Shown piece by piece: positions 5,445-46,500 of a stretch of DNA of 64,000 bases. A program made the position numbers and the translations under genes. The number at the start of each line of letters is the position of its first letter. Positions within the stretch are counted from its first letter, which is position 1. The stretch lies in the NCBI GenBank assembly GCA_001724265.1, contig MEDY01000019.1, positions 62,001-126,000 on the forward strand, in the 5' to 3' direction. The notes under the pieces are model-generated. The model was not told where the DNA came from. It made no database searches and saw only the letters and a program-made list of their open reading frames with translations. The stretch is from Rhizaria sp. SCN 62-66. Taxonomy: Eukaryota.

Positions 5445-8400
5445 ATGCAGCCTGCCCCCGGCCACCCGTCGGCCTACAGCAGCAATCCCTACGCGCTCGC
5501 CGGCCCCCCGCGGCAACAGCAGCAGGCCCCTACAGCCGCATCGGCCGCTTCCGCCTCCGCGTCGGTCGCGACGGCTGCGACAGCTGCGCCGCACAACCCC
5601 TTTGCCCCACCGACTGCCTCCGTTTCTGCCTCTGCTGCGCCGAATCCCTTTGCCCCCCGTCCTCAAACATATGCAACCGCTGCGCTGGCTGGAGCGACTG
5701 GAGTGACTGGAGCTTTTCCCCAGCCTCAGCCACAACCACAGCTTCCACAGCGCTTGCCGACGACAGGCGCGGGGCCAGCGGTGGCATCTCGGCCCAGCTA
5801 TGCCCCCCTGCCGAGCTACGCGCCGCTGGCGCCGCTGCCGGCGCTGAAGCCGCTTATGCCATTCGCAGCCACAGCTACAGCTACAGCTTCAGCTACAGCA
5901 TCGCAAGCGCCAGTGCAGTCGAGCGCGAGCGCGAGTGCTAGCAGTGCGGCGCTGCCGTTTGCGAACAACCCCTTTGCGCCTCGGCCAGTCAGCTACGCTA
6001 GCGATATCGATAGCAATAGCATTAACAGCAGCAGCAGCAGCAGCAGCAGTCAAAATAACACTTATCTAACGACTGCTGCGCCGACCGTCAGTGCCAGTGC
6101 AACTCAAGCTGCTCACAGTCACTCTAGCGATTGCAACCACGGTCACGCTCACGGTTAGGGCCACGCTCACGGCCACAGTCATGGTCCCGGCTCTGCCCCT
6201 TGTACTCACAGTCACTCTGCCCCTGCTCACAGTCAATCACCTAGCTCACAGTCACTCGACACACAGCCACTGCTCCAGTCGCACTTGCAGTCTCAGTCTC
6301 ATAACTCGCGTAGCCCTCAGACATCTGCGGTGAGCCAGCAGTCACTGCGCTCCGTCCCCCCGCTCCCTTCGCTCCTGAGCGGCAGTAACAGTCTGCGCAG
6401 CAGCAGCAGCAGCAGCAGCAGTAGTCCGCTGTACCGCCTGCCCGGTCCCGCGTCCCCGCGCGCGCTATGGCTGGCCGCGCTGTCCCTCTTCCCGATGCTC
6501 CTGCTCCGCTCGCCGCCCCTCTCCTCCCCCTCCTCATCGTCATCATCAGCACTGCAGCAGCGCTCGGTCGCCGCGACGCTCCGCCGCCTCCTGCTGCCGC
6601 AGCCCTACGCAGTGCTGCTCGGCTACCTGCTCTTCCTCGTCGCCATCGCCACCGCCGAGATGGCGTTCGCGGCCTGGACGGGCTACGTCGGCGCGGCGAC
6701 GTCGGGGTTGCACAGGGCCTTCCACGCGGGCCTCGTCGCCGTCGCACTCGCGGCTGCGGCGCACGCGCGGATCAGCCCCGTCGACGCGCGAAACACACTC
6801 AGCAACAACAGCAGCAACGCGAGCAACAACAGCAGCAGCTCCGGTGTCGCTCGCGGTGGCGGCAGTAGCGCGACCGTCATGCTCTCGCTGCCGCTGCCGT
6901 CCCTGGCGGCCACGCGCGTGCCCGTGCTGGTGGCCTTCGCGCTCACGTCCTCGGTGCTCTTCACTTCGGTCTTCCACAGCCTCGAGGCCGTCCACGGCTT
7001 CCTCTCGCCCGCGCACGCGCACGCGCACGAGGACGAGCACTCTCTGCTGCCGTTGGCCGCCGCGCTAGCGGACTTCGCGGCTGTCGCGCTGCTCGCCGCC
7101 GCAGGGTTTGGCCCGCTCGCGGCCGGCGACTGGGCCACCGCGGGGCTCCACGCGCCTGATAGCACCACCAGCAGCGGCGCCAGTCATAGCGGCGGCGGGG
7201 GTGCAGTGCCGCGGACGGCGACGGGGGCGATCGACGTGTTCGCGTGCGTGGAGCTGGCCGAGACGGTTTCCAAGGCGGCGGCTGCGTCTTCAATGTCTCG
7301 CGCTCACAGTCACGGTCAGAGTAGCACGAGCGCTAGATCCAGTTCTAATATCAACGCTAACGATGGAGTTGTTGGCTTGGCTCCGGGGATTGACTATTTC
7401 GCCGAAGAGCAAGACCAGAACACTGCTGCTGCTGCTGCGAACGGCATCAACAGCAGTGGAGTCTACAGCTCTGACCACGACCACGATCACGATTACGGTC
7501 ACGGTCACGGTCATGGTGCGGGTGCAAATGCGAGTTCAGCGGCCCCAGGACTCATCGCTTTCCCCCTCAACTGCTCCATCGCGTCCCTCACGCACACCTT
7601 TAGCTCTCACGCCATTGCCAACACCAACACTGACGCTCACGGCTCTCAATCAAGCTCCTGTGCGAGTGTGTCGCCGCCGCCGCCGCAGCTGACGGTGGCC
7701 GCGGCGTCCCCAGGCGTGCTGCTGCATTGGCGGGCGCACACGCTCTCGGCCGACCACACGCTGCTGCCGGCGCTGAGCGTGCTGCTGCTGTCTTCGGGTC
7801 TGATTCACAGCCACCCGCTGGCTGCACCCGCGCTGCACCTGCTGCTCGACCTCCACGCCTCGGCGCTCGCGACCACGCTGCTCGCGGCCGCGCTGCTCTG
7901 TGCCGTCGCCGCGCCCGCCGCGCGCGCCGCCGCCGGCGTCCTCGTGTTGGCTGTGCCCCGCGGGGCCCGGCGCGCGGCCGTCGCTGCGGCGGCGGACGCG
8001 GCGGCGGCGATGGCCACGGCCAGCGGCGGGGGCGGCGGCGGCAGCGCGGATGTCATGAACAGCGGTTATAACAATTGCGGCGGCAAGCTCGCGTTGTCAT
8101 CCGCGCAGACTAATAGTGCTGCTGCTGGTAATGTGGTTACGGCTGTCACATGCAGTGAGCAGCAGCCCGTCCAGCTGTTCACGGTGTCCCGCATCGCGTC
8201 CGTGACCGCGTATCTGCCGACGCCGCACTCGCTCGCCGTCTCCGTCGCAGTGCTCCTGCGGCCCTGGCCCGCCGCCGCCGCTGCGCACGGTGCTCAGGTG
8301 ACTGTGGGCAGCCATGCCGCGACGCGCGCGATGCGGTGCCGCCACCTGGGCACGGCCGCGGGCGCCGCGGTGGGGCCCTGGACGGCGGCCGAGGTCGCCG

Positions 8401-8501
8401 CGGCCGTGCGCGCGGCCGTGGGCGCCGCGGTCGGCGCCGCGGAGGCGGGCGGGCGCGCGCTCAGCACGGTGACAGTGAGTACTGAGGTGGAGAAAGCGTA
8501 A
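5445..8501 (+). CDS. Cation diffusion facilitator (ZnT/MTP-like) metal transporter, divergent; spans an in-frame TAG at 6156-6158
   Basis: ORFs 5403-6158 and 6285-8501 are in the same frame, separated only by one TAG inside a His-Gly repeat. CDF-like segments: AEMAFAAWTG..GLHRAFH, TRVPVLVAFALTSSVLFTSVFHSLEAVHGFLSP, GVLLHWRAH; His-rich loops; ends TAA. About 1018 aa if TAG is read as sense. Confidence 0.65.
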
Positions 8502-8893: not shown

Positions 8894-10996
8894 TTAGAGC
8901 GCGGCGGCGTCCTCGGGCGCGGGCTTGCGCTGGGCGCCGAGAACGACCTCCTCGATCTCGTCCGCGGTCGTGGGCCACTTGCCCGAAAGGTTCTCCCAAC
9001 CGTCCTCGGTGATAAGGATGTCATCCTCGAGCCGGACGCCGCCGAAGGTCTCGAAGCGCTTGAGCACGGCGCGGTCGATGAACTTGGCCTGCGCGGGGTT
9101 GTCCAGCGCGCGGTTGATCCACGGCATGTTGAAGTAGATGCCCGGCTCGACAGTAACAACCATGCCAGGCTCCAGCACGCGGTAGCAGCGCACCCACGCC
9201 AGCCCGGGCTCGCAGCAGCGCTCGACGCCCGGCGCGAAGCCGCCCACGTCGTGCACGTTGAGGCCGAGAAGGTGACCCAGCCCGTGGGGCATGAAGACCG
9301 ACGCCATGTTCGCGGCCGCGTACTCGGCCTCGGTGCCGCCCGTGAGCAGCCCGATCTTGGCCAGGTGCGTGATGAGCACGCGCTCGGCCAGCCTGTGCAT
9401 GTCGGGGAAGTTGACCCCCGGCTTGAGTTGCGCGTACACGGCCTGCTGCGCGGCGTGCACGGCGGCGTGGATCGCGCGCTGGTCCTCGGTGAACACGCCC
9501 GAGACAGAGTACGAGCGCGTCAGGTCCGTGGTGTAGCCCGCGTACTCGGCGCCCATGTCCAGCACCATCATGTCCGACGGCTTCAGCAGGCAGTTGTTGG
9601 GGTAGCCTGAGATGGGTGCAGTAAGGAAACAAAAGGAAAGGTATCTCGATGAGATACAAGATTTCAAGAAACATATTTTAATAATAATAGTAAATACAAA
9701 TATACACGCGGATATACTGTTATAATGTCAAAGTGATATGATTCAAGCGAGATATATTCATTTGAAGTGTCGCTCAGGTGACGCACCGGCGTGTCCGTAG
9801 TGGAGGATGGCGCCGTTGGGGCCGGTGCCGCAGATGCAGGTGTAAGCCATGTGGCGCGCGGCGCCGAAGTAGCCCGCCCAAGCCTTGTAGAGCATCTCAC
9901 ACTGGAGCTCGCTCATGCCGGGCTTGATGTGGCGCATCACGTACACGTGCGCCTTGGCCGACATGACGCACGCACGGCGCAGGTGCGCAATCTCCAGGGG
10001 CGTCTTGTGCACGCGCAGCTCAGTCAGCACCGGGTGCAGCAGCTGTAAGAAGAGAGTAAGCAACAAATACAAGAATGAAACGATGAGATATGACTTTGTG
10101 AGAAGCGATTCTTCATAATGACAAGTAAGTTTTCTTTGTTTTGCAAAGCGAACTTAGCGTACCTTGAGGTCGATCTCGAAGCTCTCCATGCCATCGAACA
10201 CGGCGGTAGTCTTGGTCTCGGAGCCCGAGTCGGTGTTGCGGCCCTTGAGCAGCAGGATCTTGGTCACGCCCATCTCCTTGAGCGCCTTGGCGATGTTGGT
10301 CGTGTGTTCCGCGCGGTCCACCATGAGCGTGCGCGTGTAGTACTCGAGCCCGCGCGCCGGGCCCTGCCAGCGCTCCGCGTCGGGCGACACGGGCGGCACA
10401 AACACCACGCTCTGCCCGCCCACGGCGGTTTTGTCGCCGTTGTCGCTGCTGCTGGGGGCGGAGAGGATGAGGGCGCCGAAGACGTCGGGCTCATTGAGCT
10501 GGAACAGGTGGCGGAAGAACGCCTCCTGGCGGAACTCCGTCTTGTCCGTGTCGGAGCAGTACAGCGCAAAGTCCTCGCTCGTGCCGCCCTGCGATCGATG
10601 CGATACGAAGCAAAATGAAGCGATGCAAAGATGAAGGATTTTATGTGTGTGAGTGTTTGATCATTGAGAAGGTCATTTTTGAACAACTATTTGATAAATC
10701 CATACATAATATTTTAAAGGAAAACTAATATCACAAAGTTGATTGATGTGTGCGCAATACTCCGTGGTGATTGTTTGTTCTATGTCACGTACCATGAGGA
10801 CGGCGGCGACGCCCTGGGTCTTGCCCTCAAGGGCCTTGGCGAGCAGCGCGTACGAGCGCACACGGTTCTCCTTGGCCATCTCGGCGATAAACACGGGGTC
10901 CGTCAGCGCCTTGTACTCGTCCATGCTCGCGCGCTCGGCCGCCGTGGGCAGCTCGACGGGCCAGTCAAGCCAGGGCTTGTCCTCAGAGGTCGACAT
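8894..10996 (-). CDS. PEPD: Xaa-Pro dipeptidase (prolidase, peptidase M24B), 4 exons
   Basis: Exons 10996-10793, 10588-10163, 10042-9787, 9606-8894 join in frame via GT..AG introns (532 aa). Motifs FRQEAFF, AILHYGHAG, LDMGAEY..YTTDLTRS, MPHGLGHLLG..VHDVGG, TVEPGIYF, GGVRLEDD; ends TAA. Confidence 0.93.
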
Positions 10997-18692: not shown

Positions 18693-24850
<6,158 letters not shown>

Positions 24851-25314: not shown

Positions 25315-28239
25315 TTAACGGCGTTGCTGCTTTCCTTTCCCTTTAGCTGCTGTCGCAGCAGCCGCAGCAGCGGCAACAACACCGCGCGCCTCACAAATCG
25401 CACAGCGACATTGCCACGAGAACCTGTTCTGGATCTCTTGCCCCAGCTCAGTCTCTTGCTTCGCGTCGCCCGCGGACACGGCCGACAGCAGAGCGCGTGC
25501 TGCCGTGACGGGGTCGGTGGAAGTTAGGCCACTAGGAGGACCGAAGATGTCGTCATCATCACCATCGCTGTCGGGACCTTTGCCACCCTTGCCCTTCCCT
25601 TTGCCTTTGCCCTTCGCAGCTGCGACACTCTTGGCGGTATGCACTGTCGTCGCTGCAGTCTCTGTCATTGTCGTTGTCGTCTCTGCCGCGCCAGCTGTTG
25701 AGAGTTGCTTCAGCGCAGTGGCGCAGCGGTCACGCTCGGCGTGAAGATTCAAGTCAGGCTCGGGCGTCAGCTCGCCCGCGTAGCTGATTGTGATTTCGTC
25801 CCCGACCAGCACCGCGCGCTGACACACGACGACGACACACGACGCGGCGGCGCGCGGCAGCAGGGACCGCATGAGCCGCGCGCGCTGATGCTGCTGATGC
25901 GCAGCCAAACCAGCGGCACTCGCGCTGCCAGTAGCAGCGGCAGCGGTGGCGAGGGCGGCGGCAAGCGACTTCGCGTCAGGCGCGCCGCCGTCGCTGTCCC
26001 CCAGCGGCAGCAGTGCGCTGGCGCCGGTGATGCTGGCGTTTGGGCGGCAGCTGTGGTTCAGCTGCGCGTGCCAGGGAAACATCCCGCACACGAGCGCGCT
26101 CGGGAGCGGGATCGCGTGCGGCTGGACAGCGGCGAGCTGGGGCAGCGGGCGCGGGCACACTGTGTTCACGGCAGCGCTTGCGGCAGCCGAGGCAGCGTCG
26201 GCAGTCAACGCAGCGCTGCTGCAGTTAGTCTTGCCGTGAGCGCTGTTGATGATGGCGCCTGCGCGGAGGTTGTGGCTCTCGAGCTCAGCGACTGTGGGCA
26301 GCTCGATGTGCTGTGTGTTGTGCGTCAGCATGCCGGCGAGCACATCAAGGAGCTCAAACGGCAGCAACACCGACGACGCATTCACATCACAGTTAGACTC
26401 ATTGCCAGAGTAAACAGCGTCGATCAAATCGCACAGAATAGTGTGCAGCTCAGTGATGAGCTCCTTCTCGCTCGTCACGCCCTCCGCATCCTCGTCGTCG
26501 CCTTGGTCGTCGACACTCTGTGCACTGTACACCGAGCGTTCGAATGAGTCTAGCGGAGCAAGAGCCGCACGCCAGGCGTCGTCGCTCAGCCCTTGCCACC
26601 ACTGCTTGGCACGGCACTGTTGCTGCGCTCGGTCAAACGCACGGAGGCGCGAGATGACTGTGGCGACAAGACGCGCCACGCGCAGTCCGGTGAGCCACTG
26701 GTTACTCGTCACAAACACAGCGAGCTGCGAGACAGCCGCCGCGGCCGCCGGCGTGAGCACTGGGGCGGCAGGGGCAAGTGCGGTTGCATCGGTGCTGACA
26801 GACTGTGAGCAGGGGAGGGTGAGGCCACCGAGCAGGAGCGAGAGGTGGGACGATAGCGCAGCGGCGCGGCAGCCGGGGCCACAAAACAACGGACCGGGGT
26901 GGTGATACGCAGGCACCGACGACTGGCTGGGAGTCACGATGTTGTTCTGCAGATCGTTGATATGCGTCGTTGTGACGTTCACAGGCAAAGGGCCGGCGTG
27001 CGCGCTGAAGCCGTAAAGACTGAACAAAGCATCGTTGGCACTTGCGCTATCATTACCCGAGTCGCTTGTGCTTGTGTTGCTGTTATACAGAGTAGAGCCA
27101 GTTGAGGTTTGCGTCGCCAGACTAACCGCGCACGATTTGCCGGTCGCAGCATCCATAGGCACACCACTCGCGCTCACAGCCAGACTGTCGTTCTTCGCCC
27201 CAGCCCCAACCCCAGCCTCAGCGTTAATACAGGGGTTGCCGCTGTTAGTCTTAGGACTTGCGGCAGCAACGGGAGGCGCGGGAAGCTTAGCGGCCCACAT
27301 AGCAGGGGACACCGTCACATACACCGGCTAAGACTCGTCCTCGTTCCCATCCAGCTGCCCACTGTCGCCCTCGGCCGTTTCAGGCTCCTCGTCTTTGTTA
27401 CTATCGTCACAGCCACTCTCCGCGGCTGCGGCTGCCTGCTCGCCGTCCCGCTGACTTGCAGCAGCAGCGCCAGCGGCAGTGTAGGCGCGCAGCGCTGTCG
27501 CGACGTGGCAGTGCTCTTCTGCCGCCGTGAGCACTGGACTGAGGCAGAAGTCGCACAATACAGCAGCCGTGCGCACCGGCAGCCCGCCATGCTGCTGCAC
27601 GCAGTCGCCTGAGTTCACAGCGGCGCCACAGCAAGTCGTCTCAGCGCCCGTCGCCGTTGCGTGCGCAGCGCACGCAGCGGTGCGCAGCAGAGGCAGCGGG
27701 TCGCCTTCTTCGGCCTCAGGCGCGTCCATGCCGTAGTGCGCGCACATCTTGGCGTTGTACCCGGTCAATACGGCCTGGCACTCGGCGCCCACCTCGTCCG
27801 CGCCGGGAACGGCGACCTCTTGCACGCCGAGGGCGCGCGGCGGTTCGCAGAAAATGACGTCGCCGGGGAGGAAAGGGCGGAGAGCGAACAAACCGCGGCC
27901 TTTGCCGGGAGTTTCTCGCACCTCAACGTCAAAGCACGGCGCGAAACAGTGATTAGCGGCAGGTGTAGCGGCTTGTGAGGTGATTTCCAAGGAAGAAGAG
28001 ACGGGCGCGCAGGGAAGCCAAGCGCCATCGGCGGTTGTGAAAGTAGCCGCAGTGGCGCGGGCGGGCGCAGCGAGGGCGCTGTAGGCAGCGGACTCAAGCG
28101 GGGCAAACACTGAAACAAGCAAGCGCTCTGCATCCGCAATAACGGAGGCGGACGTGGTGGCTGGGGGTGTGCGTGGGGCCAGGGGACGGCCGACTGGCAA
28201 GGAAGGCGCCGCCGTTAGCCACGACTGCCAGTAAGACAT
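25315..28239 (-). CDS. SMYD-like split SET-domain lysine methyltransferase; spans an in-frame TAG at 27328-27330
   Basis: SET N-half (VEVRETPGKGRGLFALRPFLPGDVIFCEPP) lies upstream of the TAG; SET C-half (GMFPWHAQLNHSCRPNA, GDEITISY) and post-SET (FSWQCRCAIC) lie downstream in the same frame; ends TAA. About 974 aa from ATG 28239. Confidence 0.82.
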
Positions 28240-28480
28240 TGCGCAAACTTCTTCTGGAGGCTGTTGAGAGAGACAGAAGAAGAGATATATCAAAAATATT
28301 TTAGTATAATATTAAAACCAAGAGATTATTACCCAAATCAATGTTACACTTTCTATAGTGCTGCAAATGTTGCAGGCACTCAAGCTTTGCCGATTTGTGG
28401 AGGGGACGCCGAAGTGGTGGGAGAGCAGGTCTTGATAATTGACTAAGTTCATTTGTCGGATATTGATCGTCAACAGCATC

Positions 28481-29942
28481 ATGGGAAAAGGATGCGGTGG
28501 AGGCGGTCTTAAAATTCTTCGCCATAAAAGCTGGCATGTTGTACGTTTTATCTCTGCATTATATTCTTGCTTCATTATTTTACACTCCTGATTCACAACC
28601 TCGCTCATCACTCCCGACTCCCCTGTATCCTTATGCGCCTCTATAGTGGAATCCCGACAATCAAGCTCGTGTGCGCCGCGACATTGACGCGCACAACGCG
28701 CGGACCCGCTCTTTGCACGCCGCCACAGCGGGTGCCCGGTCTGCCCGGCTCATCGCTAGGCTCCGCGCTCGCAAGGATGCCTTCGCGCCCTACCTCGTCA
28801 CCAACACGGCTCTCGTGGACCACGACAGCGGCGCGCCGGCCGGACATTCGGTGACAATTTCGGGCGAGGTCTACGGCGATGGCGCGGCGGACGAGGGCGA
28901 GACAAGCGACGAGGATGACGACGCTCAGCACGGTGGAGCCAGCGGCAGCCACAACACGAGCAGAAACAACAGCAACGAAAGCAACACACAACAGCAACCT
29001 CTAAGTCTACCCCTTTTCACATTCGACTTTGGCCCATCCGCTCTTCGAACTCAGCCGCAGTCGCAGGCGCCGCCGCCGCGCGCTCGCAACGTGTCCCGCT
29101 GGGGGGACCTGGCCCATAGCCACAGCCAACTCCTCGCGGTCGCCGCTGCGGCTCCTGGCGCTGCCGCAGTTGCGGCTGAGACGGCGCCACTGAAGGCGAA
29201 GACAGTGGCAGGAGCGCAGAGTGTGGGCAGCATGACTGCGAGCAGCAGCTTGAGCCACGACCAGGCTCGCGAGAACGACAGTGCAGCGCTCAAGAAGGCG
29301 AAGAAGGAGGATGCCCAGACTCAGGACGCCAAGACTAAGACCCGGACCAAGAGCGACCGTGAGCGCAAGGGTGACAGGCGTCGCGGTGCTGATAACACGC
29401 ATAGCAGTGATGATGAGGACAGCGGCAGCGGCAGCGGCAGCGGCGGTGACAGTGACAGCGACGGTGACAACCGTAGCCGCAGCCGTCGTAACCGCAACAG
29501 CCGCCACACAGACCGCGACCGCGGCCGTGATCGCAGTCATCGCGACCGCGATTATGACCGTGAGCGTGAGCGTGAGCGCAGTAAAAGCAGGACTAAAGAC
29601 CGACGCAGGCGCAGGCGCAGTCGCCACCGAAGCGCCGACGACGACAGCTGTGTCGTGCTGAGCGGAGACGACAGCGATGTTGTAGCTGTCGCGGTCGGAA
29701 ACCGCAGGCAACCGCTGCCGCCGCTGCTGCGCACGATTGCGCGCGAGGAGGCAGCAGCTGCTGCAGCAGCAGCATCCGCTTCAGAAGCCGCAGTTGCAGC
29801 AGCAGGGGCACCGACAGCGGCAGCTGTCGCCATATGCTCTGGCTCCAGTTCACGCTCAGCTAAAACAAACAAGAGTCACACGCGCAACAAGGCAACGACT
29901 TCTACTGATGTTGTTGAGCTGCTGTCGAGTGATTCAGACTGA
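28481..29942 (+). CDS. Cir_N-domain (CBF1-interacting corepressor N-terminal / LENG1-like) protein with RS/RD-rich region, 2 exons
   Basis: Exon 28481-28540 spliced (intron 28541-28646, GTACGT..TAG) to 28647 gives MGKGCGGGGLKILRHKSWHV|WNPDNQARVRRD, the Cir_N signature; Arg/Ser/Asp-rich C-half; ends TGA; 451 aa. Confidence 0.8.
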
Positions 29943-30767
29943 TGCGTGACTGGATAGTGCTGTTATCGGTCATTTTGCACACTTGATGTGATAGATGGTT
30001 CCACCCTTGAGCGACGTTGGCGGGATATATCCAGTGATACTTTACTTAGAATTTCATTTATTTAAACATACGATTTCAACTGCATTTTTTACGTGGGGTA
30101 TATAGTTTATTGTTTTCATATTTTTATGTACAGTATAACATATTCAAAACAAAAAACACAGCTGAGTAAAGCAACAACTTTAAGGGCTTCAAAGACTATT
30201 CCGGTTGTGAGTCGATTGACAAAACATGCTGTGATTAAATTAATGCTATTAACGACTAGATAACTTATTTATTTAAGTTCAAGTTAATTAAGCTCAATAT
30301 ACTGTTCTTACACTCTAAACAACGATTACGTCTGCTTTTCACTTCAAGACGTTTTGAAATTAAATTTGATGGTGTCGAAGTGTATTCGTGATTTAGTCCG
30401 AGCGGTCAACCCATATTAGAGCCATAAAAACGCACATATCATGTGGCCCTAGCTTACAATATTGAAAAAACACGATTCATGTCAACATAACTCTAAACTC
30501 AGCATAGAAAAAATCACAAAACAATACAGAGTGCAGTTAATTTTCACTTATTAATCGCCAATGCTTTACGGGATTTGTCACGGGTCATTTGTTGGCTCTC
30601 ATCAAGCTGATGAAATCACAGCTAAGATTTCACGTTTAGTCGATTCTTGTTTGGTTTAGAGTTTGTTTAGTTTCGGTGCTTGGCGTGGCTTTCAACTATT
30701 CGATTGTACAAGCAAGTACGAGTACATTATACGTCGATATGCACGATTAACAGTCGCACTTGCTTGT

Positions 30768-32764
30768 TCAAGCGCGCGCCGCCGCCTTGGCCGCCGCCGC
30801 CGCCGTGGCCGCCGCAACTTTCTTGCCGAGCAGCTCCAGCACCTGGACCTGGGCCTTGAGGTCGAGCCGCGCGGCCATATCGACGACGCTCTCGACGGTG
30901 GCGTTGGCAGCGACACAGGCTGCGTCGGCGCCGCTGAGCGAGACGAAGGACCAGTAGTAGACGTAGACGAAGAGCCCCATAAGGAGCTGGCAGTCCATGC
31001 GGTCCGTGAGCCCGCCGTGACCCGGGATGAGGTCGCCAAAGTCCTTGATCTTGAACGCGCGCTTGAAGCCCGAAGCGAAGAAGCCGCCGAAGGGCGCGAT
31101 GACGGACGCAAAGACGGCCATGACGAGCCCGTGGAGCTGCGCGGGCGCGTAGCCAAAGGAGACAGGCCCGACGAGGGCGCCGAGCGCGGCGGGCAGCGTC
31201 ACGGTGACGGTCTCAGTCGTGAACACGGGGTCGAGCGCGCAGGCGGGGTGCGTGAAGGACAGCGTCGAGACGGAGCAGGTCAGGATGGGGAACCACGTCA
31301 TGACGCGCGCGACAAAGAAGCCCGTGAGGCAAGTGCACACGAGCGCGCCCAGAAAACCCTCCCACGTCTTGCGCGGCGACAGCGCGATGAGCGGGGTGCG
31401 GCCGCACAGCATGCCCCACACGTAGGCCCACGAGTCGTTGGAGATGATGAGCAGCACCGGCAGCGCGAACCAGAAGAGGCCCGTGAACATATTGTAGAGC
31501 AGGAAGGTCGACTGGAGCACAATCACGGCCAGCGTGATGAGCACCCACGCGAACATGCCGAACTGGCGGCGGTACAGACCCTGGTAAAGTTACAAAATTG
31601 TTTCACAAAATTGTTTCACATGTACAGACAGTGAGTTTGAAGTAGAATAAATGCTGATAGAAGCAGGTTTAGGGGGGCATATCCATTATTTTCATCTCCA
31701 TTATATCTTAAATTGAGAACACATTGTGCACATCTGCTTGAAATATATCGTGTTTTGTGATTATGGGGGAATAGCGTACCTGCTTGAGGGCGAGGACGAA
31801 GCCGACGAAGCCGATGATGAGGAGGCAGAACGAGGCGAAGAGGTGGTAAGGCACCTCGATGCCGAAAATAGTGTTGGCAATGCGGCCATAGGTGAGGAAA
31901 ATCGTTGCGAAGAACCAGTACCAGTTCTGGGTGCGGAACAGGGAGATGTGCACCTTTTCCTAAGTTGCCACATGAGCATAGAAGTGAAACAATAAATGTG
32001 AGTAGAGCAAGGTTAAGAAGCGATCCATAACTGAACAGGTAGGACATACATAGAAACACGTGTAATGAGGCCGTTCATGCTTGATACGAGTTGCTCTGCA
32101 TAAGTTTAGCATGATTCGATGATTATGAAGGAAAGGCGATTGCGCTAATACACGCGAGACGGACCTGGTCGGTGAGCAGGTGACTGTAGGCGAGGTTGAC
32201 GACCTCACGGTACATCATAAACTGCACGAGCATAACAGTGGCGGCCACAGCGGGCTGGCCGAGGTGGATAATGAGGCAGAAGATGCCAAACATGGCGAAC
32301 GACGTCCACACGCGACGGAAGATCTTGGAGAACGTGCTCTCAGACTCCTTCGGTGCGGCCACAGCGGCGGCGGCGGCGGAGACAGAGCCGGCGAGTCTAC
32401 CGGCGAACGCGGCCGCAGCGGAGGACGAAGACGAAGACGAGGACGTCGTGGTGGTTGTCGTGGTCATCGTGGTGTAGCCGTTCTGGTGCTGGGTAGTGCT
32501 GCGCGAGGTGGTCGTCGACGAGCGCTGCTGCTGCTTGGGGGAGCCAATCACAACCTCGGGCGCGAGGTGGATCTCCTCAAACCGGCGCTCCTTGCTCTTG
32601 GCGGCGGCCACCGCGGTCGAGTTGGCGCTGCTGCGGCTGGGGGTGGCGCCGCGGCGGCGGAGGACAGGCGCGGACGACTCGGAGGCTGAGACGAGCGGGG
32701 CCGAGGCTGCGTCCGCAGTGTCGGCCGGGGATGAGGCAAGGCGGTTCGAGCGCCGCTTGGACAT
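30768..32764 (-). CDS. CDS1: Phosphatidate cytidylyltransferase (CDP-diacylglycerol synthase), 3 exons
   Basis: Exons 32764-32165, 31959-31780, 31580-30768 (530 aa). Motifs NDSWAYVWG..GRTPLIALSPRKTWEGF and APFGGFFASGFKRAFKIKDFGDLIPGHGGLTDRMDCQ; ends TGA. Confidence 0.95.
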
Positions 32765-37506: not shown

Positions 37507-40500
37507 ATGGGCTGCTCCGCCTCGATCGTGGCGCCGGTAGAGTACGTCGTCCAGCCCGACCGCAAGCCGCGCGTGGAGCTGCTATACGGCTCCGTGGCGC
37601 GGACCCCATGGAGCGACCGTCTGGTGTCCAAGTACATCCCACGCCACATCTCCTCGCGCTTTGCCTTCGAGCCGCTCGGCTCGCACTTGGTCGAGCCCGA
37701 AGTCGAGCACTTCGAGGCCGCAGTCGCCTTCATCGATGTCTCCGGCTTCACCAAGCTGTCCGAGATGCTGGTGCGGCAGCACGGTAAGGGCTTCGGCGCC
37801 GAACAGCTCAACACCCTCATCTCGGAATACTTCGACAAACTCATCGAGATCATCGAGTTCTTCGGCGGCGACGTGATCAAGTTTGCCGGCGACGCGATGC
37901 AGGTGCTGTGGCGCAACCCCTACATCCCGGGCTCTGCCGTGCGCGGGAGCCTGCTCGACACACGCTTCTGCTTCCACCCGCCGCCCGCGCGCACGCCGGT
38001 TGGCCCCACGCTCGCGCCGACGCCGCACGCGCACGCGCACCCGCACGCCCACGGCCACGGCCACGGGCAGCGCGGCAGCTCGTTCAGCGGCCACGCCGGG
38101 GGCTCCTCGGTCTACCACGCGCAGGACAGCAACGACGCTGCGCCTGGTCGTGCCAGCCTCAACAACAGCAGCAGTAACAACGCTGGCGGCGTTGTCTACG
38201 GCCCCCCGCCGCCCCCCGGCTCCTCCGGCAGCGGCAGCGGCAGCCTGAGCACCCCCACAGCCGCATCGTTGTCGCATCAGGCGGTCGGCGATGACATTCA
38301 GCACGACGCGGCGCCATTCGCACCACCATACACGCCCAGCAGCGGCGGCGGCTACGGCGGCTTCGGCCCCGGCCCGTCTCCCAGCAGCGCCGGCCTCGGC
38401 CGCGGGCCCGGGCGCGGGCGCGGGCACGTGCGGTCCGACTCGACTGCTGGCTCAGTCATCTCGGCCGTGTCTTCGACCGGCCTCCCACGGCTGCCGCTGC
38501 CCGCGCTGTCGCGCCCGGCCACTGTGCTGCCATACGGCAGCGGCGCCGCCACGCTCGCCGGCACCAGCCTCTACAGTGGCGGCGGCGTGGCAGGCCGCAA
38601 CAGCGTGGCCGACTCGGTGGCGTCCTCGGCCGCTCTGCCGCCGCTGACCATCACGCGCAAGCCTACGTGGGGGCCGGACCTCGGCGCGAGCGCTCCGCAG
38701 ACCCTCGGCGGCGGTGGCTCCTTTCCCGACTTGCACGCCCCCCCGGGCGGCGCCGCCGGGCGACTGCAGACGCAGATGCAGGGCCGGCGGAGTCTGCAGC
38801 GGCCGCGGTCTCGCGACCGCCGCTCGGGCTATGGCGGCGGCAGGAGCTACGGCAACGGGAACGCTGCGGTGGACAACGAGGAGGAGGACGAGTACGACTC
38901 GAGCTACGATCACGACGACGACGACCATAGCACACACGGCGGCGCCACCGGCAGCAGCATCAGCGGTTTCGACCACGCCGTCGCGCCCCCGACCCCATTG
39001 GCGGCCACGGCGGCTGCGGCTGCGGCGGCGGCGGCCGCGACGACCAACGCGGGCAGCATTAACAGCAACGGCAACAACAACGAAGACAGCGAGTCAGAGA
39101 TCCTCGAAGACCTGTACAACAGCAACATCAACGGAACCTTCAACAGCAACGGCTCCTTCACGAGCGCCGCCGACGGCCCCGGCGGGCCCGGCGGCGGCGG
39201 CGGCGCGCGCGGCACGTTTGCGCTGACGGCACCGGTGCAGGCGGAGCGGCCGCCGCTGCGCTGGGACTCGAGCCGCTTTAGCCTCGGCTTCACGGGCTAC
39301 TACCCGGTCCCGATTGTGACGGCGATGCTGGCCGACGACGCCTGCACCGCCGCCGCCACGGCTGCCGCGGCCGCGGACCGCAGCTCAAAGAAGATCAAGA
39401 GGAAGCTGGAGAAGGAGCGGCGGCGCCTGGAGAAGGAACACCGCCACCACCTGCATTGCCAGCACTATTACGAGGAGCGCGTGGCCGTCGACGCGGCGAC
39501 CAACGCGGGCATTCCCGTCGCTGACACCGACTGCGCCACCTTCGCGCGCAACAACGCCGCCAGCAGTGCGAACATGCGCGGCTACATCAAGCCCTCGGTG
39601 GTGTACGTGCACCCGCTGCGCTTCGACTCGGCCAAGCAGCAGGACGGCGTCGATGTGCCCACGGTCACCAAGGCCGTCGCCGCGGCGGCCAAGGCCGCTG
39701 CGGAGGCGGCGGCGGCGGCGGCGGCGGCCGCTGAGGAGGACGACAGCGACGACGACGGCGCCACGACCGACGGCGACGGCGCCGGCGACAACAACAACAA
39801 CAACAATAACGATTACACAGACAACAAAGGTGGCGCGAAGAACAACAACGGCAAGAAGGCCCGCGCCACAGTGGCCAACGCGCCCGGCGGCGGCGGTGGT
39901 GGTAACAAGTTAAGCCGCGGCCGCGCCGCGATGGCACCCGCGCCGTCGCTGGCGCCCAGCGCGTTCGAGGCGTGCGCGGAGGCTGCCGCGAGCGAGGCCG
40001 CCGACGCGCTGGTCACGGCGTGCTTCGCGAGCCACTCGGGCGGGTACGCGGGCGACGCGAACCACATGGGCCACGCCGTGACGGCCGACGGGCGCGAGTT
40101 CGGGCTGCTCTCGGACGCCGCGCTCTACCCAAGCGTGAACAACAACAACAACAACAGCAATGGCAACGGAAATAGAAACCGCTACGGCAACAACTACGGC
40201 GCCGCCCGCAATGCTGGCACAGGCGGCGGGCACGCGGACAGCGGCGGCGACGACGCGGCGGCAGGCGACGAGTCTTGGAGCAGCAGCAGCGGCGACACCG
40301 GCAGCGAGATCGAGTCAATTTCTTCTGATTCAGCCGAGAGCTTGCTGAGCGACTTCGACTTCGGCTACGCGGACCCCAACGCGGACGACGACGACATTGC
40401 CGACGACGGCGACGACTACGACCCTGACGGCGACCATGGCCGCGGCGGCGGCGCCGACGGCGACGAGGGCGGTCTCTACGCCGTAGCGCGCGCCGCCAAC

Positions 40501-43500
40501 GCTGCGGCGGCCGCGGCGGGGAACCCGCGGCTTGAGAGGCAGCGGATCAGGCGCGCGCGCCGTACGCGCCGGCGGCGCCGCCGCGAGGAGCGCCGCGCGC
40601 GCTCGCGCGCGCTCGCGCTGCAGTCGGGGCCGGGCGCTCGGGCGCAGCTTACGCCCGGGCCCGGCGGCCGCCGCGGCACGCCTCTTGTCAACAGCAACAA
40701 CAGCAACACCGCTGACTTTGCGTCCCCGACAACGACGGTGGCGGCGCAGCTGGTGACCGGCCGCCGCAGTCTCGAGGACGACGGCGACGGCGACGGCGAT
40801 GCAGACGGCGACGGCGACGGCGACAGTCTGGACGATGAGGAGTCCAACAACGACAACGACTGGGGCGGCAACGGCGGCAACGCGGTGGGCAACGGCGCCG
40901 GCAGCAGCGCGTCCGCGCAGCAGGGCTCGAGGAACGACAGCGCGAGCGCGGCCGGAAACGCCGCCGGCGCCAACTCAAGCTCCGACATGGGCACCGGCAC
41001 TGGCACGGACACCGGCCTCGGCCAAGGCGGCTCCGTGGCGGCCACGGGCGTCGGCAGCAGCTCCGGCGCGCTCGCGGCCGGCGGCGGCGGCGGCGGCGGC
41101 AGCGCGGCGCTGGACGGCTCGCACCTGGCCAGCAGCGGCCGCCTGCCCGGCGCGCTGCCGCTGCAGTCGATCACCGCGCTGCGGCGCGCGCAGCGGTGGC
41201 GCCGCACCGCCTGGGAGCGTGCACGCACGCGCTTCGCCGCCAGCGGGCTCGCGGGCCGCGGGCTGACGTTCGCGGCCGACGGCGCGGCGCTCGGCTTTCT
41301 GACCTCGCCGCGCGCGTCCTACGGTTTCGACAACATGCCGGGGCTGCTCAACTCGCCGCTCGCGGCAACCGCAGGCAACAACAACAGCAACAGCAACGGT
41401 AGCAACAACGGCAGCTCGACCGCTCTCGTTCCTGCTGGCGGGAAAAGCTCTGCGTCCCCCCAGCAGCAACAGCGGCAACTGCAACAACAGCAACAGCAGT
41501 CGCAGCAACCCAACGGCCGCTCGCCCGGCGCGGACGAGGTGATCGGCCCCGACGGGCTGCCGCGCTTCGTGCGCACGGACCGCCGCGGGCTGCTGAACCC
41601 CGCGCACCGCACGCTCACGGCCGCGCCGCCGCCGCCCGCCGCCGCGCAGGCTGCCAGACACAAGGCCGCCCCCGGTCTGCGCGGCGTGGGCGTGATGAGC
41701 AGCGCGGTCGGCGGCGGACACCTGCTGCCGCTGCGCGTCGGTCCGCAGCGCTTCCACGACGGCTTCCTGGACCCCGACTTCGTGCGCGCCAACGCGGCTG
41801 TGTACGCGCACCGCGTGCGCGACGCGCGCCGCCGCGCTGCCGCCTTCGGCGCCACCGTGCTCTCGCACCAGCCCGTCCCGCTGCTCATGCTGCTCGACTC
41901 GGCGCACACGCAGGTTCGCACCGCGCCCGGCGCCGCGGGCGCGGTCGGCGCCTCTGTCAGCAGCGGCAGCGGCGGCGGCGGCAGCGGCAGCGGCTGCGCG
42001 GCCCCGTGCGGCTCGCTGCCCTGCGGCGACGAAGACTATGACGACGGCAGCAACACCGCGGCGGCGGCCCGTGCACGCGCGCGCAATCGCGCCCGCGGCC
42101 GCGCGGGCGGCGACGGCGGCGAGGGCTACCATTGGCTCTCTGGCCGGCCCGTCACGCGCCTGCAGGACCGGCTGCGGGTCGAGGAGAAGCGCGGCGGCGT
42201 CTGGGCCGTCAAGGGCCACCAGCTCATCCAACTCACCTCGGCCGCGGCGGCCGCGGCCGCCGTCGCGCTGGCGGCGCGCTTGACGGCGGCGCACGTGGCC
42301 GCGCAGGCGAACAAGGTGCACCAGGAGCACCGCGCGCGCACGGGCGCCGCCATCGCCACTGCGGCCGCGGCGGCGGGCGGCCGCGCGCTCCCCGCGGCGC
42401 CCGACCCGGCCGCCGTCGCCGCCGCGCTGGCTGTGCGGCTCGTGCCCGCCGTCAAGGGCGACGCCAAGGCCCCGCTGGTTCCCGTGCCGTTCCCCAGCCT
42501 TAACGGCAGCGTGTACATGCCGCTCGCCAAGGCCTCGGGCTTCTGGTTCAACGCCGTGGGGTTTCTGCAGCGGCGCCTGATGCACAACCTGCGCCGGCTG
42601 CGCTGTACCGCCGCGGGCAAGGGCGCGCGCATGCACCCGGGCGCGGGCTGGCTGGCCGAGCAGCAGCAGCGCTTGCAGCGCCGCGCGGCGCGCAAGGCGG
42701 CGCGGGCGCGCGCGCGCGCTGCCAGCCGCGGACAGGACGGCGGGCAGGAGAGCGTCATCTCGGGCGACGGATACGACTTCGCGGAGTCTGTCGGGCCTGA
42801 CGGCGACGCGACGAGAGCCAACAAGAAGGACAAGAAGGACAAGAAGCCCGGGAAGATCGCAAGTTTCTTCAAGCGCGTGTTCGGGGGCAAGAGCAAGGAC
42901 GGCAAGGACAGTAAGGACAGCAAAGACACGGCCAACGCTAGCGCCACCGGCGACAAATACCGCGCCAAGTCCCCCGCGACGGCGAGCAAGACGCGCCGCC
43001 CGCACCCTCGCGCGCCCGAGAGCTTTGCGTCGCTGCACACCGACATTGACCTGGGCGGCAAGACGGGGCCCAGCTCCGGCGCCGGCACCGGGACCGGCAG
43101 CGGCGACGGCGACGGCCGGGCGCAGTCGCGCGGCGCGCTCAGCGGCTCGGGCCGCGGCGGCGGCGGCGGTGACTCCCCGTCGCCGCTCGAGTCGCCGTTC
43201 TCGCAGCAGTCCGACTTCAGCGGTACGTCCCCGATCAGCGGCTCGAGCAGCGACGTGTCGAGTGTGTACACGCACCCGGCGTACTTCCCTCCGCCCGTCG
43301 CCGCGGCGCGCATGCGGCGCCTTGAGATGGAGAAGCAGGCGCGACGCCAGTACGGCGTGCCCGACACCAACACCGCGCCCTCGCGCCACAAGAGCAGCGC
43401 GAAAACCACGGACCAGCTCTCGAGCGCTAACACCCACACCAACAGCAACACGGCCAACGACACTGGCGCGAACGTTTCCCCCGATAAGCGCAATCGCAAC

Positions 43501-46500
43501 ATCAACAACAACAGCAACACTAATAACGCGAATGTGAACGCGAACACTGGCGCTGGCACTGACGGCCCCCGCCGTGGCCCCAGTCGCCGTCGCCGCGCGG
43601 AGGCCGCGTTGGACCGCGAGATGGCCCTGGAGCGCGAGCGCAGCGGCGCGCAGTATTTCCACGAGCCGCCCGTGCGCGTGAAGCTGATGTCGCTACACGA
43701 GCTGACGCTGCGCGCGACACTGTGCTGCCTCGTGCTGCTGCAGCACCAGAACGCGCTGGTGCCCGGTGCCATCGGCTCCGCGCTGCGCCTGCACATGGGC
43801 ATTGGCGCCGGGCTCTGCTCCGGGTTCATGGTCGGCGGGTTCCGTCGCTCCTGGGAGTTCTACATCGCCGGCGACCCCGTCACGGACATGTCGCTGGCCG
43901 CCAACGAGGCGCAGGCTGGTCAGTTAGTGTTAGCCCAGTCCGCGTATCACTTCATGCGCGACCGCGTGGTGGGCCACCCGACGCGCGACGACCTGTTTAT
44001 CGTCCAGCGCCTGCGCGGGCGCTACCGCGTGAAGCCGCACCACGCGGCGCTCAAGCCGCGTGTGAGCGCGGACGAGGCGCTGCTGGACTTCGTGCCGCCG
44101 CTGATCCGGCATCGGCTTGACACGTCGACGTCGACGACGTGGCTCGCAGAGTACCGCACCGTGACCGTGGCCTTCGCCAAGCTCGTGGGCGTCGACTACA
44201 GCGACCCCTGCGCGCTGTCGCGGATCCAGCTCGCCGTGCAAGTCATCCAGGCCGTGATCAGCGAGCACATGGGCTCCATCGCGCGGCTGCTGTGCGACGA
44301 CAAGGGCACGCGGTTCAAGATCGTGTTCGGAATGCCCTCGCAGTCGCACTCGGATGACACGGTGCGCGCCGTGCGTGCGTGCTCGGTCATGTCCAACATC
44401 ATCGCGCAGTCGGCCACGGGCCTGCGCCTTGCCATCGGGGTCGCCACAGGGCCCGTTTTCGTCGGAAACGCCGGCTCAGAGCAGCGCTGCGAGTACACCG
44501 CCGTCGGAAGCACGGTCATTCTCGCCGCGCGTCTGTGCGAGAAGGCACACGAGCACAACTACGGCGTCGTCGTCGAAGAGCTGACGTACAATCTCTCCAA
44601 CATGAGCATCAGCTTCGCGCAGCTGCCGTCGGTCATCCTCAAGAACATCACCACGGCGGTGCCCATCTTCCGCCCGATGACGCTGCTGGAGTCCGCGGAC
44701 GGCGCGCTCAGCGCGCACGGGCTCAGCTCGTCTAACGTCTCGGTCTACACCGGCAACAGCAGCAGCAGCAGCGGCAGCGGCAACGGCCTTGATGCGGGCG
44801 GCGACGGCGACAATCTTAAGGACGACACCTTCGACTCTAACGCGGATTTGCTCGCACGCGGCTTCTCCGCCAGCAGTCTCCGTAGCGGCGCCGGGATGGC
44901 GGCTATGCTCAACAACCGTGTCTGGCCCGGCGGGCTCGCGGGCGGGCCGCGCGGCACTGCGCTCACGGCCACGGTCCCCACCACTGGCGGGTCGCCGGTC
45001 TCGCGCGGCCCGAGCAGCGCCAGGAACAGCTCCGTGCGGGGCCTCCGCGGCATCGGCGTCGCCGGCATTGGCGGCAGCGGGCTCTCGGTGACGCTGCCCG
45101 ACGCGGACGCCGGCCTCGGCGCCGCCGATGGCGCGCTGACCGAGCGCGGCCCGCCCCTGCGGCGCCGGCGCGGCAGCGTGATGTCGATGACCACCAACTC
45201 TAACTCGGCCTTCGAGGGCGACACGGACCAAGGCAGCGCGCTTATGTGCTATGTCGCTGACCAGCGCGGCGAAAACGGCTTTTTCATGCCCGAGCAGTAC
45301 GGCTACCTGCTACGGTGGCAAGAGTTCGACTACTTCCGCTGCCGCATCCTCTGCTGCGGCTACGTCGACCGGTACGCCGCTCCGCGCATGCAGGGCGGGC
45401 TGCTGAAGCTCGAGAACATCTTCGAGTCCTTCGGCCGCGCCATCACTTCGTCCTCGATCTCTGACTCTCGCTCCGACGTCGACGCCTCAGGCTCCGACTC
45501 GGCCTCGCGCTCGGGCGCCGGCAACGGGCTCGGCAGCGGCCGCGGCGGCGGCACGGGCGGCCTTGGCAGCGGCGGCAGCAACAGCGGCGCACATGGCCAC
45601 GGCGGCGGCTCCACCGCGTCAGGCGACTCGACGGACGACGGCGAGGACATCGGTTTCCCCGTCATCGCCGACGCGCCGACCGACTTGCCGTCTCCGATGC
45701 CGCCCCGGCGCGGCATGATCTTCGCCGGCTCCCCCGCGCTCAACGCGGTCGCGGGCCCGCTGACGGCTTCGACGCCCTTCACGCTCGACTCGCAGCCGCT
45801 GCCACTGTCGCTGCCGCCGTCGTAGCCGCGGACTCAGCTGCAGCCGACGCAGTCCAAGAGGCGCAGTAACGTGTTTTTCCCCGACGCCGCCTCCACCTCA
45901 GTGTCTGGGCATGGAAGCGACGCGATAATGCTTCCAGGCGCTGTTGCCGCAAACGATTCCACACCGCACGTGTCTGCACTGACACTCGACGTGCGTTCGC
46001 CGTCGCAGCGCATGCTCACCCCACCGCAGCCGCAGCATCAGCTTAGACAGAAGCGCATCTCGACCGGCGACGACAACGCCGCGTCGCAGCAGCCCGATGT
46101 GTTCAACCCGTACTTGGCGTCGGGAGACCTTAGCGACCCGCTGCAGACCCCCGCGGGCGGTGCGGCTGATATCGCCGGCATGTCCCTCGACGACGCCGCT
46201 GCGATCTCTGCATCCAACGCCGCAGTGGTCGCCGCAGCCGCCGCGGCCGAAGCCGCTGCTGCGGCTGGGCTGGCGGGCGTCTCGAACGCGCTTCCGGCCG
46301 CGAGCGCTGCGCCTGCTTTCCTCTCCTCGGCCGCAGCGGCTGCGGCGCTGGCCGGCGGCCGCTTACACTCCGGCGGCGGTCTCCCCGCGCCGCCGCGGTC
46401 GGTCGCGGCCTCGGTGATCAACCACCTCATCCGCGGCACGCAGGTGCCGCCGTCGCTGCAGCGCGCGCTCGAAGGCTTCACCAGTGTGCACGCGCGCAGC

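Follow-up and report, generated by a model that had tools for sequence, protein, structure and literature searches.

A rare in-frame TAG, probably translated, within a split-SET methyltransferase gene of an uncultured GC-rich eukaryote

The DNA analyzed here, a stretch of 64,000 nucleotides (hereinafter the window; 50-74% GC), comes from an uncultured eukaryote of bioreactor and wastewater metagenomes whose DNA is GC-rich and whose introns are short. Its minus strand carries a SET-domain gene that reads GAG GAC GAG TCT TAG CCG GTG TAT GTG at an internal position, with the TAG at 27330-27328, inside the interval 27300..27360 in which the original prediction had placed an in-frame TAG on this strand. 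The gene and its parts, with conservation judged against the relative P0002 (817 aa), are as follows:

25315..28239 (-): SET (SMYD-like) gene, ATG at 28239-28237, TAA at 25317-25315, 974 codons, single in-frame TAG
27835..27933 (-): N-terminal SET segment FDVEVRETPGKGRGLFALRPFLPGDVIFCEPPR, residues 103-135, upstream of the TAG and nearly invariant relative to P0002
27544..27555 (-): CDFC, first Cys pair of a putative MYND-like remnant, upstream of the TAG; C229 and C232 invariant relative to P0002
27328..27330 (-): in-frame TAG, codon 304, in the context TCT TAG CCG within the acidic low-complexity linker NEDES-X-PVYV
26845..26886 (-): FCGPGCRAAALSSH, second Cys pair and His of the putative MYND-like remnant, downstream of the TAG; F452, C453, C457 and H465 invariant relative to P0002
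26038..26058 (-): NHSCRPN catalytic SET motif, residues 728-734, downstream of the TAG; matches SMYD2 189-217; NHACRPN in P0002
25780..25797 (-): EITISY with the catalytic Tyr, residues 815-820, downstream of the TAG; matches SMYD2 223-313; invariant in P0002
25393..25410 (-): CRCAIC post-SET-like Cys cluster, downstream of the TAG; CRCALC in P0002

The product of this gene is a predicted SMYD-type (split-SET) lysine methyltransferase. A PDB profile search matched it to SMYD2 (E 1e-6) over three colinear stretches; the first precedes the TAG and pairs SMYD2 residues 10-36 with the N-terminal SET segment, and the other two follow the TAG. The GxG SAM-binding motif GKGRGLFA occupies residues 112-119 (27906-27883, minus strand), and positions 1-21 of the Pfam SET profile match residues 114-134; the Pfam SET score of the protein, 23.9 bits, is borderline against the gathering cut-off of 22.4 bits, and that of P0002 is 32.8 bits. 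The assignment made in the original prediction, with GKGRGLFA upstream of the TAG and NHSCRPN, EITISY and CRCAIC downstream of it in the same frame, is borne out in full. Its view that both halves are needed for a SET domain finds support: the SMYD2 stretches lie on both sides of the TAG, neither half alone makes a complete domain, and unless the TAG is read through, NHSCRPN and EITISY do not share a polypeptide with GKGRGLFA. The elements CDFC and FCGPGC...H may represent a MYND-like zinc-finger remnant; the Pfam zf-MYND profile had no match in the protein at E <= 0.01. The SET domain is likewise naturally split in SMYD2, SMYD3 and Toxoplasma AKMT (PDB 5kjk, 3s7b, 6fnd and others), and as in the SMYD family an insertion with putative zinc-finger cysteines separates the GxG strand segment from the NHxCxPN/ExxxSY core. 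However, the insertion measures ~590 residues here, most of them of low complexity, as against ~150 in SMYD2, and, unlike in the SMYD family, what would be left of the MYND finger is a remnant (CxxC ... FCxxGC ... H), itself split by ~220 residues. An AlphaFold2 model of the read-through protein, made from a two-row alignment, had a mean pLDDT of 31.3 and a pTM of 0.23, too low for use.

Several lines of evidence place the TAG inside a single predicted gene rather than between two. The two stop-to-stop ORFs on either side of it, 27328..28311 (327 aa) and 25315..27327 (670 aa), share one frame and adjoin without a gap. No stop occurs in the 670 codons downstream, where 19.4 would be expected at the rate of the five other frames (0.029 per codon), the probability of such an open stretch at that rate being ~4e-9. 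The codon-usage score is positive from ~28300 to 25600, with neither a dip nor an intergenic drop in GC at the TAG. Moreover, P0002 presents the same gene as one uninterrupted frame, from MSSYW... to ...RR with matching termini, and covers 91% of the read-through protein. Identity to P0002 is 111/246 (45%) before the TAG and 245/521 (47%) after it, and the downstream half, for which relaxed selection had been named beforehand as the mark of a recent pseudogene, is thus conserved to the same degree as the upstream one. The TAG itself aligns with a proline of P0002. It lies in an acidic linker within the natural SMYD-type insertion that shows little conservation, and the alignment therefore does not point to any particular amino acid. 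A search for shorter, split relatives of the protein returned only the organism's own 290-aa fragment, and a scan of metagenomes for DNA of the relative gave only the 4,878-nt contig L001, which is the window's own sequence, scans of viral and genome contigs being empty.

Base error, which had been raised as a possible refutation, does not account for the TAG. Positions 27328-27330 show no differences in contigs of three of the four runs, X1 (2015), X3 (2017) and X4 (2025), which stem from three studies, and L001, from another metagenome, is identical to the window over its full length, this TAG included. The X4 contigs differ from the window elsewhere, for instance by changes 3 nt apart at 33816-33912; hence the TAG is retained in a strain that can be told apart from that of the window.

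The following features concern the other in-frame TAGs of the window:

37507..63999 (+): giant gene of >8,831 codons, running off the window end, with an adenylate/guanylate cyclase domain (Guanylate_cyc, E 8.8e-10), a GC3 of 0.87 and one in-frame TAG
45823..45825 (+): TCG TAG CCG, within the above giant gene; second robust in-frame TAG
6156..6158 (+): TAG at a His slot of a His-x dipeptide repeat, HGHAHG-X-GHAHGHSHG; probably the third in frame

The coding score of the giant gene runs unbroken across its TAG (0.58, 0.31, 0.31, 0.44) and 6,058 open codons follow (probability of remaining open by chance ~8e-46), codon score and ORF statistics being the sole basis for continuity at this site; the TAG shows no differences in the contigs of X1 and X3. 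A search with the piece that spans the TAG against 1.84 billion representatives gave 10,800 matches, of which the best 150, excepting the organism's own 2,772-aa fragment, match via the cyclase domain, and the BLASTP alignment of P0015 and P0021 with the giant gene does not cross the TAG. The coding score upstream of the TAG at 6156 is weak (0.0-0.16), which leaves that case ambiguous; a homolog search with the corresponding read-through His-rich protein was without any match. All three TAGs sit in low-complexity, poorly conserved linkers. None is aligned to a conserved column, and at the only alignable site, that of the SET gene, the partner is the above proline of a non-conserved linker.

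Of 13 gene ends in the window, a small sample that includes two genes with weak codon scores, seven are TAA, six TGA and none TAG, an outcome with a probability of ~0.02-0.12 for a usual TAG share of 25-15% among stops (0.018-0.103 for n=14); this absence is suggestive only. TGA 9758 and TAA 23122 were left out of the count because they lie inside introns, and ORF 30660..31634 (+) was dropped as a gene, being antisense to a CDP-diacylglycerol synthase gene with a negative codon score. All three long TAG-terminated ORFs in coding frame continue in the same frame. In 18,425 confident codons there are two in-frame TAGs, no in-frame TAA or TGA and no frameshift. That the in-frame stops are exclusively TAG discriminates little, since ~65% of the nonsense mutations that are one step away from the codons in use here would yield TAG. 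No tRNA genes were found in the window, and Rfam gave no matches; the ESM Atlas gave family names only (DGAT1-like MBOAT, M24 peptidase).

Taken together, these observations make it probable that TAG is translated here, at the very low frequency of two in 18,425 codons. The SET mRNA would keep its UAG and the ribosome would translate through it, most likely because UAG has ceased to be a terminator, with UAA and UGA serving for termination and UAG persisting as a very rare sense codon. We infer that continued translation at UAG would be a genome-wide rather than a site-specific property. Both the conserved Cys pairs of the putative zinc-finger remnant and the SMYD2 stretches straddle the SET TAG and lend this reading support. 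The original prediction had regarded the TAG as decoded: its premise of one gene with intact motifs on both sides stands, while decoding itself is deduced from the DNA, and some probability stays with a recent nonsense mutation. Tolerated nonsense, leaky readthrough and a young reassignment would all be equally compatible with the rarity of TAG.

The foremost alternative is that the organism uses the standard code and that recent nonsense mutations in the SET and giant genes became fixed in a clonal population, too young for decay to have set in. We regard this as unlikely, albeit deserving serious weight. All database copies are 100% identical, from which the population looks clonal and the fixation of a recent mutation becomes conceivable; of the nonsense codons, TAG is the easiest to reach (65% of single-step paths), in-frame TAG is very rare, and every instance lies in an unconstrained linker. 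Against this, two and perhaps three independent truncations would be needed among ~14 genes in 64 kb, in a region whose 18,425 codons otherwise contain neither frameshift nor TAA or TGA, and 6,058 and 670 codons have stayed open after the two robust TAGs. In the SET gene, conservation is as high downstream of the TAG as upstream, the TAG was kept from 2015 to 2025, including in the run whose contigs differ elsewhere, and TAG is absent from the 13 gene ends.

A near-cognate tRNA could also read through UAG at particular sites, by leakage or in a programmed way, with the standard code elsewhere and both short and long products; this appears distinctly improbable to us. Termination in eukaryotes is weak where a C follows the stop codon, and both robust sites read TC[TG] TAG CCG (Ser-stop-Pro), which places a C at +4; the rarity of TAG and its location in linkers also agree with leakiness. 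But this sequence is the only common feature and is present at two of the three sites, and the downstream RNA (103 nt from each TAG) is not unusually stable (z -0.30, +0.36 and +1.42). A mostly terminated product would, moreover, be wasteful, the N-terminal SET fragment being without the catalytic motifs, and readthrough leaves the zero of 13 gene ends in TAG unexplained.

The TAG could also be removed or changed in the RNA, through an unconventional in-frame intron with TAG as its acceptor or through base editing, which we consider very improbable. Introns do exist in this genome; they have GTACG donors, are AT-rich (GC ~0.35-0.42) and 106-205 nt long, and three of the five with both ends defined finish in TAG, as in these examples:

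23037..23148 (-): intron of 112 nt, AT-rich, GTACGC...AAGTAG, joining ORFs 23149..24750 and 18693..23036; typical of the organism's introns
28541..28646 (+): intron of 106 nt, AT-rich, GTACGT...CTATAG, with the coding score beginning directly after it

Across the second of these, exon 1 (ATG 28481, MGKGCGGGGLKILRHKSWHV) joins in frame; this intron is a predicted model, across which one RNA contig is colinear. That contig is from X6, a polyA metatranscriptome run that has contigs of the organism (e.g., 28381-29086, 42660-43233 and 44654-45241); among its pieces listed, none spans 27328-27330 or 45823-45825, and this run thus speaks neither for nor against decoding. The near-start in-frame TAG at 28644 is best read as the acceptor of this intron, and we rejected it as a fourth sense TAG. 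For the SET TAG the situation differs: of the 152 frame-preserving GT..AG pairs that span it, the lowest GC is 0.57, and the 30 with a plausible donor measure 249-699 nt and would delete residues conserved with P0002. The surroundings of this TAG have no AT-rich stretch and no GTACG donor able to excise it in frame, just as the original prediction had held. The sole frame-preserving candidate that uses the TAG as acceptor (249 nt, GC 0.65) would lose PVRTAAVLCDFCLSPVLTAA, which is conserved in P0002, and the residues that flank the TAG align with P0002.

Barely credible is an explanation by two separate genes or by an assembly or sequencing error: public protein collections do hold the SET gene only as fragments, as prokaryotic gene callers give P0156 (290 aa, on two contigs) and P0001/3/4 (661-669 aa, on seven contigs), but P0002 is one frame, GC and coding score do not drop at the TAG, neither half is a complete SET domain, and the sequence is identical in three runs of three studies and in L001.

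Returning to translation of UAG as a rare sense codon, a more specific version of it may be put forward tentatively, as a possibility that is less than even: the organism could be at an early stage of reassignment, having abandoned UAG as a terminator (none of 13 gene ends, with TAA commonest despite the high GC) and using it as sense at ~1 in 10,000 codons. Such use would as yet be confined to unconstrained linkers, perhaps with Ser-UAG-Pro favored, a state intermediate between an unassigned and a captured codon, in a lineage for which no departure from the standard code is known. To our knowledge, few departures from the standard nuclear code occur outside the ciliates, whose genomes are mostly AT-rich. 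If true, the present case would add a further independent lineage with UAG reassigned, GC-rich, from an engineered ecosystem and with extremely rare UAG, and it could show the early stage of a stop-codon reassignment. At a practical level, gene calling by the standard code splits this organism's genes, as seen in the SET fragments and in the first part of the giant gene, which is stored publicly as a 2,772-aa 'protein'.

The closest precedents are two non-ciliate protists, the rhizarian exLh (UAG = Leu) and Iotanema spirale (UAG = Gln), in whose nuclear codes UAG is a sense codon while UAA and UGA terminate (PMC5304391); the same paper recounts that a change in the meaning of UAG while UAA stays a stop was long thought to be constrained. 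As in these, the in-frame stops of the window are exclusively UAG, and the gene ends are UAA and UGA only (7 and 6 here, 56 and 15 in exLh; PMC5304391). In contrast, exLh has 384 in-frame UAGs in 71 genes (PMC5304391), hundreds of times more than the 2 in 18,425 codons of the present organism, and, unlike in exLh and Iotanema spirale, here no UAG falls at a conserved column and the DNA is GC-rich (50-74% in the window). The ciliate UAG-only reassignments (PMC11687900 and PMC10553269) likewise decouple the meaning of UAG from that of UAA, whereas nothing ciliate-like is seen here, with TAA as the commonest terminator and a GC of 50-74%. Finally, Condylostoma and Blastocrithidia (PMC4967479 and PMC12153298) likewise read a stop codon as sense inside genes; all three stops are reportedly reassigned there and many in-frame stops occur per gene, whereas in the present organism TAG only is affected, and very rarely.

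On the minus strand, positions 27342-27316 are GAG GAC GAG TCT TAG CCG GTG TAT GTG, with the TAG at 27330-27328, where two stop-to-stop ORFs (27328..28311 and 25315..27327) abut and share a frame. The original prediction of an in-frame TAG with SET motifs on either side, the downstream ones still in frame, is thereby confirmed:

Elements of the SET gene
28239 to 25315, minus strand: the gene read through from its ATG to its TAA, 974 codons, the TAG being codon 304
5′ of the TAG, minus strand: GKGRGLFA motif
3′ of the TAG, minus strand: NHSCRPN, EITISY and CRCAIC motifs

A length-matched search with the read-through protein recovered two proteins: its own 669-aa downstream fragment and P0002, an 817-aa relative that spans 91% of it as one uninterrupted frame. 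The two align from start (MSSYWEKW versus MSYWQSW) to a common terminal RR, with conserved blocks flanking the TAG on either side. Conservation is equal across it (identity 111/246 before, 245/521 after). The TAG column itself is a proline in P0002, within a weakly conserved acidic linker (EDES-X-P versus EQEA-P-P). The cysteines of a putative MYND-like remnant, likewise conserved in P0002, straddle the TAG (CDFC upstream, FCGPGC..H downstream), and the coding score (codon usage along the frame) shows no dip there. Three colinear stretches of SMYD2 were matched by a profile built from the two sequences (E 1e-6): upstream of the TAG, the N-SET segment, and downstream, NHxCxPN and EEITISY; SMYD3 and Toxoplasma AKMT gave weaker matches. 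Because of these colinear stretches, we assign the predicted protein to the SMYD-type split-SET methyltransferases, with a very long insertion. Its AlphaFold2 model (pLDDT 31) was too poor for use.

Contigs from three studies, X1 (2015), X3 (2017) and X4 (2025), show 0 differences over the TAG, X1 and X3 being possible sources of the window sequence itself; the fourth run compared, X6 (polyA RNA), has none of its listed pieces over this site. X4 is a distinguishable strain that retains the TAG, since it differs from the window at 28501, 28510, 30130, 33031 and in a run of changes 3 nt apart at 33816-33912. That run lies in the DGAT1-like MBOAT gene (plus strand), where an X4 contig carries ~20 differences, mostly in third codon positions and spaced by exactly 3 nt; the pattern suggests purifying selection on a diverged strain or allele. 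With L001, a contig from a separate metagenome, also identical over 4,878 nt, a base error finds no support. The population is apparently clonal. In public protein collections the gene is present solely as TAG-bounded fragments, of 290 aa (2 contigs) and of 661-669 aa (7 contigs).

Five introns have both ends defined in the window:

Introns
23148..23037, minus strand: 112 nt, GTACGC..GTAG, with an ACTAAC-like branch motif
28541..28646, plus strand: 106 nt, GTACGT..ATAG
10162..10043, minus strand: 120 nt, GTACGC..ACAG
31779..31581, minus strand: 199 nt, GTACGC..CCAG
32164..31960, minus strand: 205 nt, GTCCGT..TTAG

They are short (106-205 nt) and AT-rich (GC ~0.35-0.42, three of these values coming from coordinates misplaced by 1-4 nt), with GTACGC or GTACGT donors in 4/5 and TAG acceptors in 3/5. 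Pfam profiles continue over exon boundaries in the prolidase and CDP-diacylglycerol synthase genes. Such short introns mean that prokaryote-style ORF calling breaks up several window genes. As predicted, nothing of this kind lies at the SET-gene TAG: the 152 frame-preserving GT..AG pairs spanning it have GC of at least 0.57, and the 30 whose donor is plausible (GTGCGC in each case; 249-699 nt) would remove residues conserved with P0002. Given their GC and length, that conservation and the steady coding score, we reject, on sequence evidence, an intron there, with the TAG as acceptor or otherwise. Elsewhere, ORFs 23149..24750 and 18693..23036 (minus strand) apparently form one ~1,980-codon gene joined by the 112-nt intron, rich in Ser/Thr/Ala with (GS)n repeats and matching no Pfam family. 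A proposed two-exon gene at 28481-29942 (plus strand) begins MGKGCGGGG, a possible N-myristoylation/palmitoylation signal, and has an Arg/Ser/Asp-rich tail; its model is predicted only, because the sole RNA contig over its intron (X6, 28381-29086) is unspliced. We set aside its near-start TAG at 28644 as a sense codon, the best reading being the acceptor of that intron.

The window is eukaryotic DNA (GC 50-74%, GC3 in genes up to ~0.85), found in bioreactor, wastewater and activated-sludge runs.

Genes in the window
37507-63999, running past the window edge, plus strand: giant gene, one frame exceeding 8,831 codons, GC3 0.87
Thioredoxin-domain protein
FKBP with EF-hand
Naf1/Gar1
TMEM135-like protein
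CCCH/RING protein
DGAT1-like MBOAT
SF-assemblin
Prolidase
CDP-diacylglycerol synthase

With TAA and TGA as the only stops, two further coding frames join over a TAG. That of the giant gene (45823, plus strand) is robust: coding scores across it are 0.58, 0.31, 0.31 and 0.44, GC does not drop, X1 and X3 contigs match the window, and 6,058 open codons follow where other frames predict 104 stops. The giant gene has an adenylate/guanylate cyclase domain at ORF residues 2225-2386; towards the N-terminus we read a further cyclase-like segment (..AVAFIDVSGFTKLSE..GGDVIKFAGDAMQVLW..), lacking a Pfam match of its own, followed by low-complexity sequence, and the last ~6,000 residues match no Pfam family. 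In layout the protein is similar to soluble-adenylyl-cyclase-like proteins, at several times their size. The TAG at 6156 (plus strand) occupies a His slot in the H-x repeat HGHAHG-X-GHAHGHSHG of a His-rich protein, and is only a probable sense-position TAG because upstream coding score is weak. The 5445-8501 (plus strand) product is a multi-pass membrane protein with His-rich stretches (HGHAHG.., HAHAHEDEH, HDHDHDYGHGHGHG) and three N-terminal-region NPF motifs; it resembles a metal-ion transporter, with no Pfam family or homolog found. The 18,425 confident codons include 2 TAG and neither TAA nor TGA. The 13 gene ends (the giant gene's lies beyond the window) comprise 7 TAA, 6 TGA and 0 TAG, TAA being commonest despite coding GC3 of ~0.8; were TAG normally 15-25% of stops, its absence would have a chance of ~0.12-0.02 (0.103-0.018 for n=14). 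Both robust TAGs (27328-27330, 45823-45825) sit in TC[TG] TAG CCG, between Ser (TCT/TCG) and Pro, which may be coincidence given two sites.

Of the proposal that TAG is decoded, the genuine TAG and intact downstream half stand; translation itself, with TAG not a terminator in this organism, we infer with moderate confidence. It would account for a stable TAG in a SET gene useless when cut short yet equally conserved on either side, an 18 kb open frame behind the giant gene's TAG and the lack of TAG terminators. Counting against it or neutral, TAG is far rarer than in UAG-sense organisms such as the rhizarian exLh, every site lies in unconstrained linker, TAG would result from 65% of the single-step nonsense mutations that this codon usage allows, the population looks clonal, and no tRNA genes were found within the 64-kb window. 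Recent nonsense mutations are, on this balance, an unlikely source of the TAGs. Site-specific readthrough of UAG is less likely still, no downstream structure pointing to a programmed event. Even taken together, removal of the TAG from the RNA, two separate genes and an error are very improbable.

UAG as sense with UAA/UGA stops is known for exLh (Leu) and Iotanema spirale (Gln) (PMC5304391) and some ciliates (PMC11687900, PMC10553269). Keyword searches of open-access text turned up no wastewater protist with a GC-rich genome for which a code of this kind has been described. UAG is much rarer here than in exLh, for which 384 UAGs in 71 genes are given (PMC5304391), versus 2 in 18,425 codons. 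If translated, UAG in this rhizarian would represent a further case of a known kind of code (UAG sense, UAA/UGA stop), distinguished by very low UAG usage.
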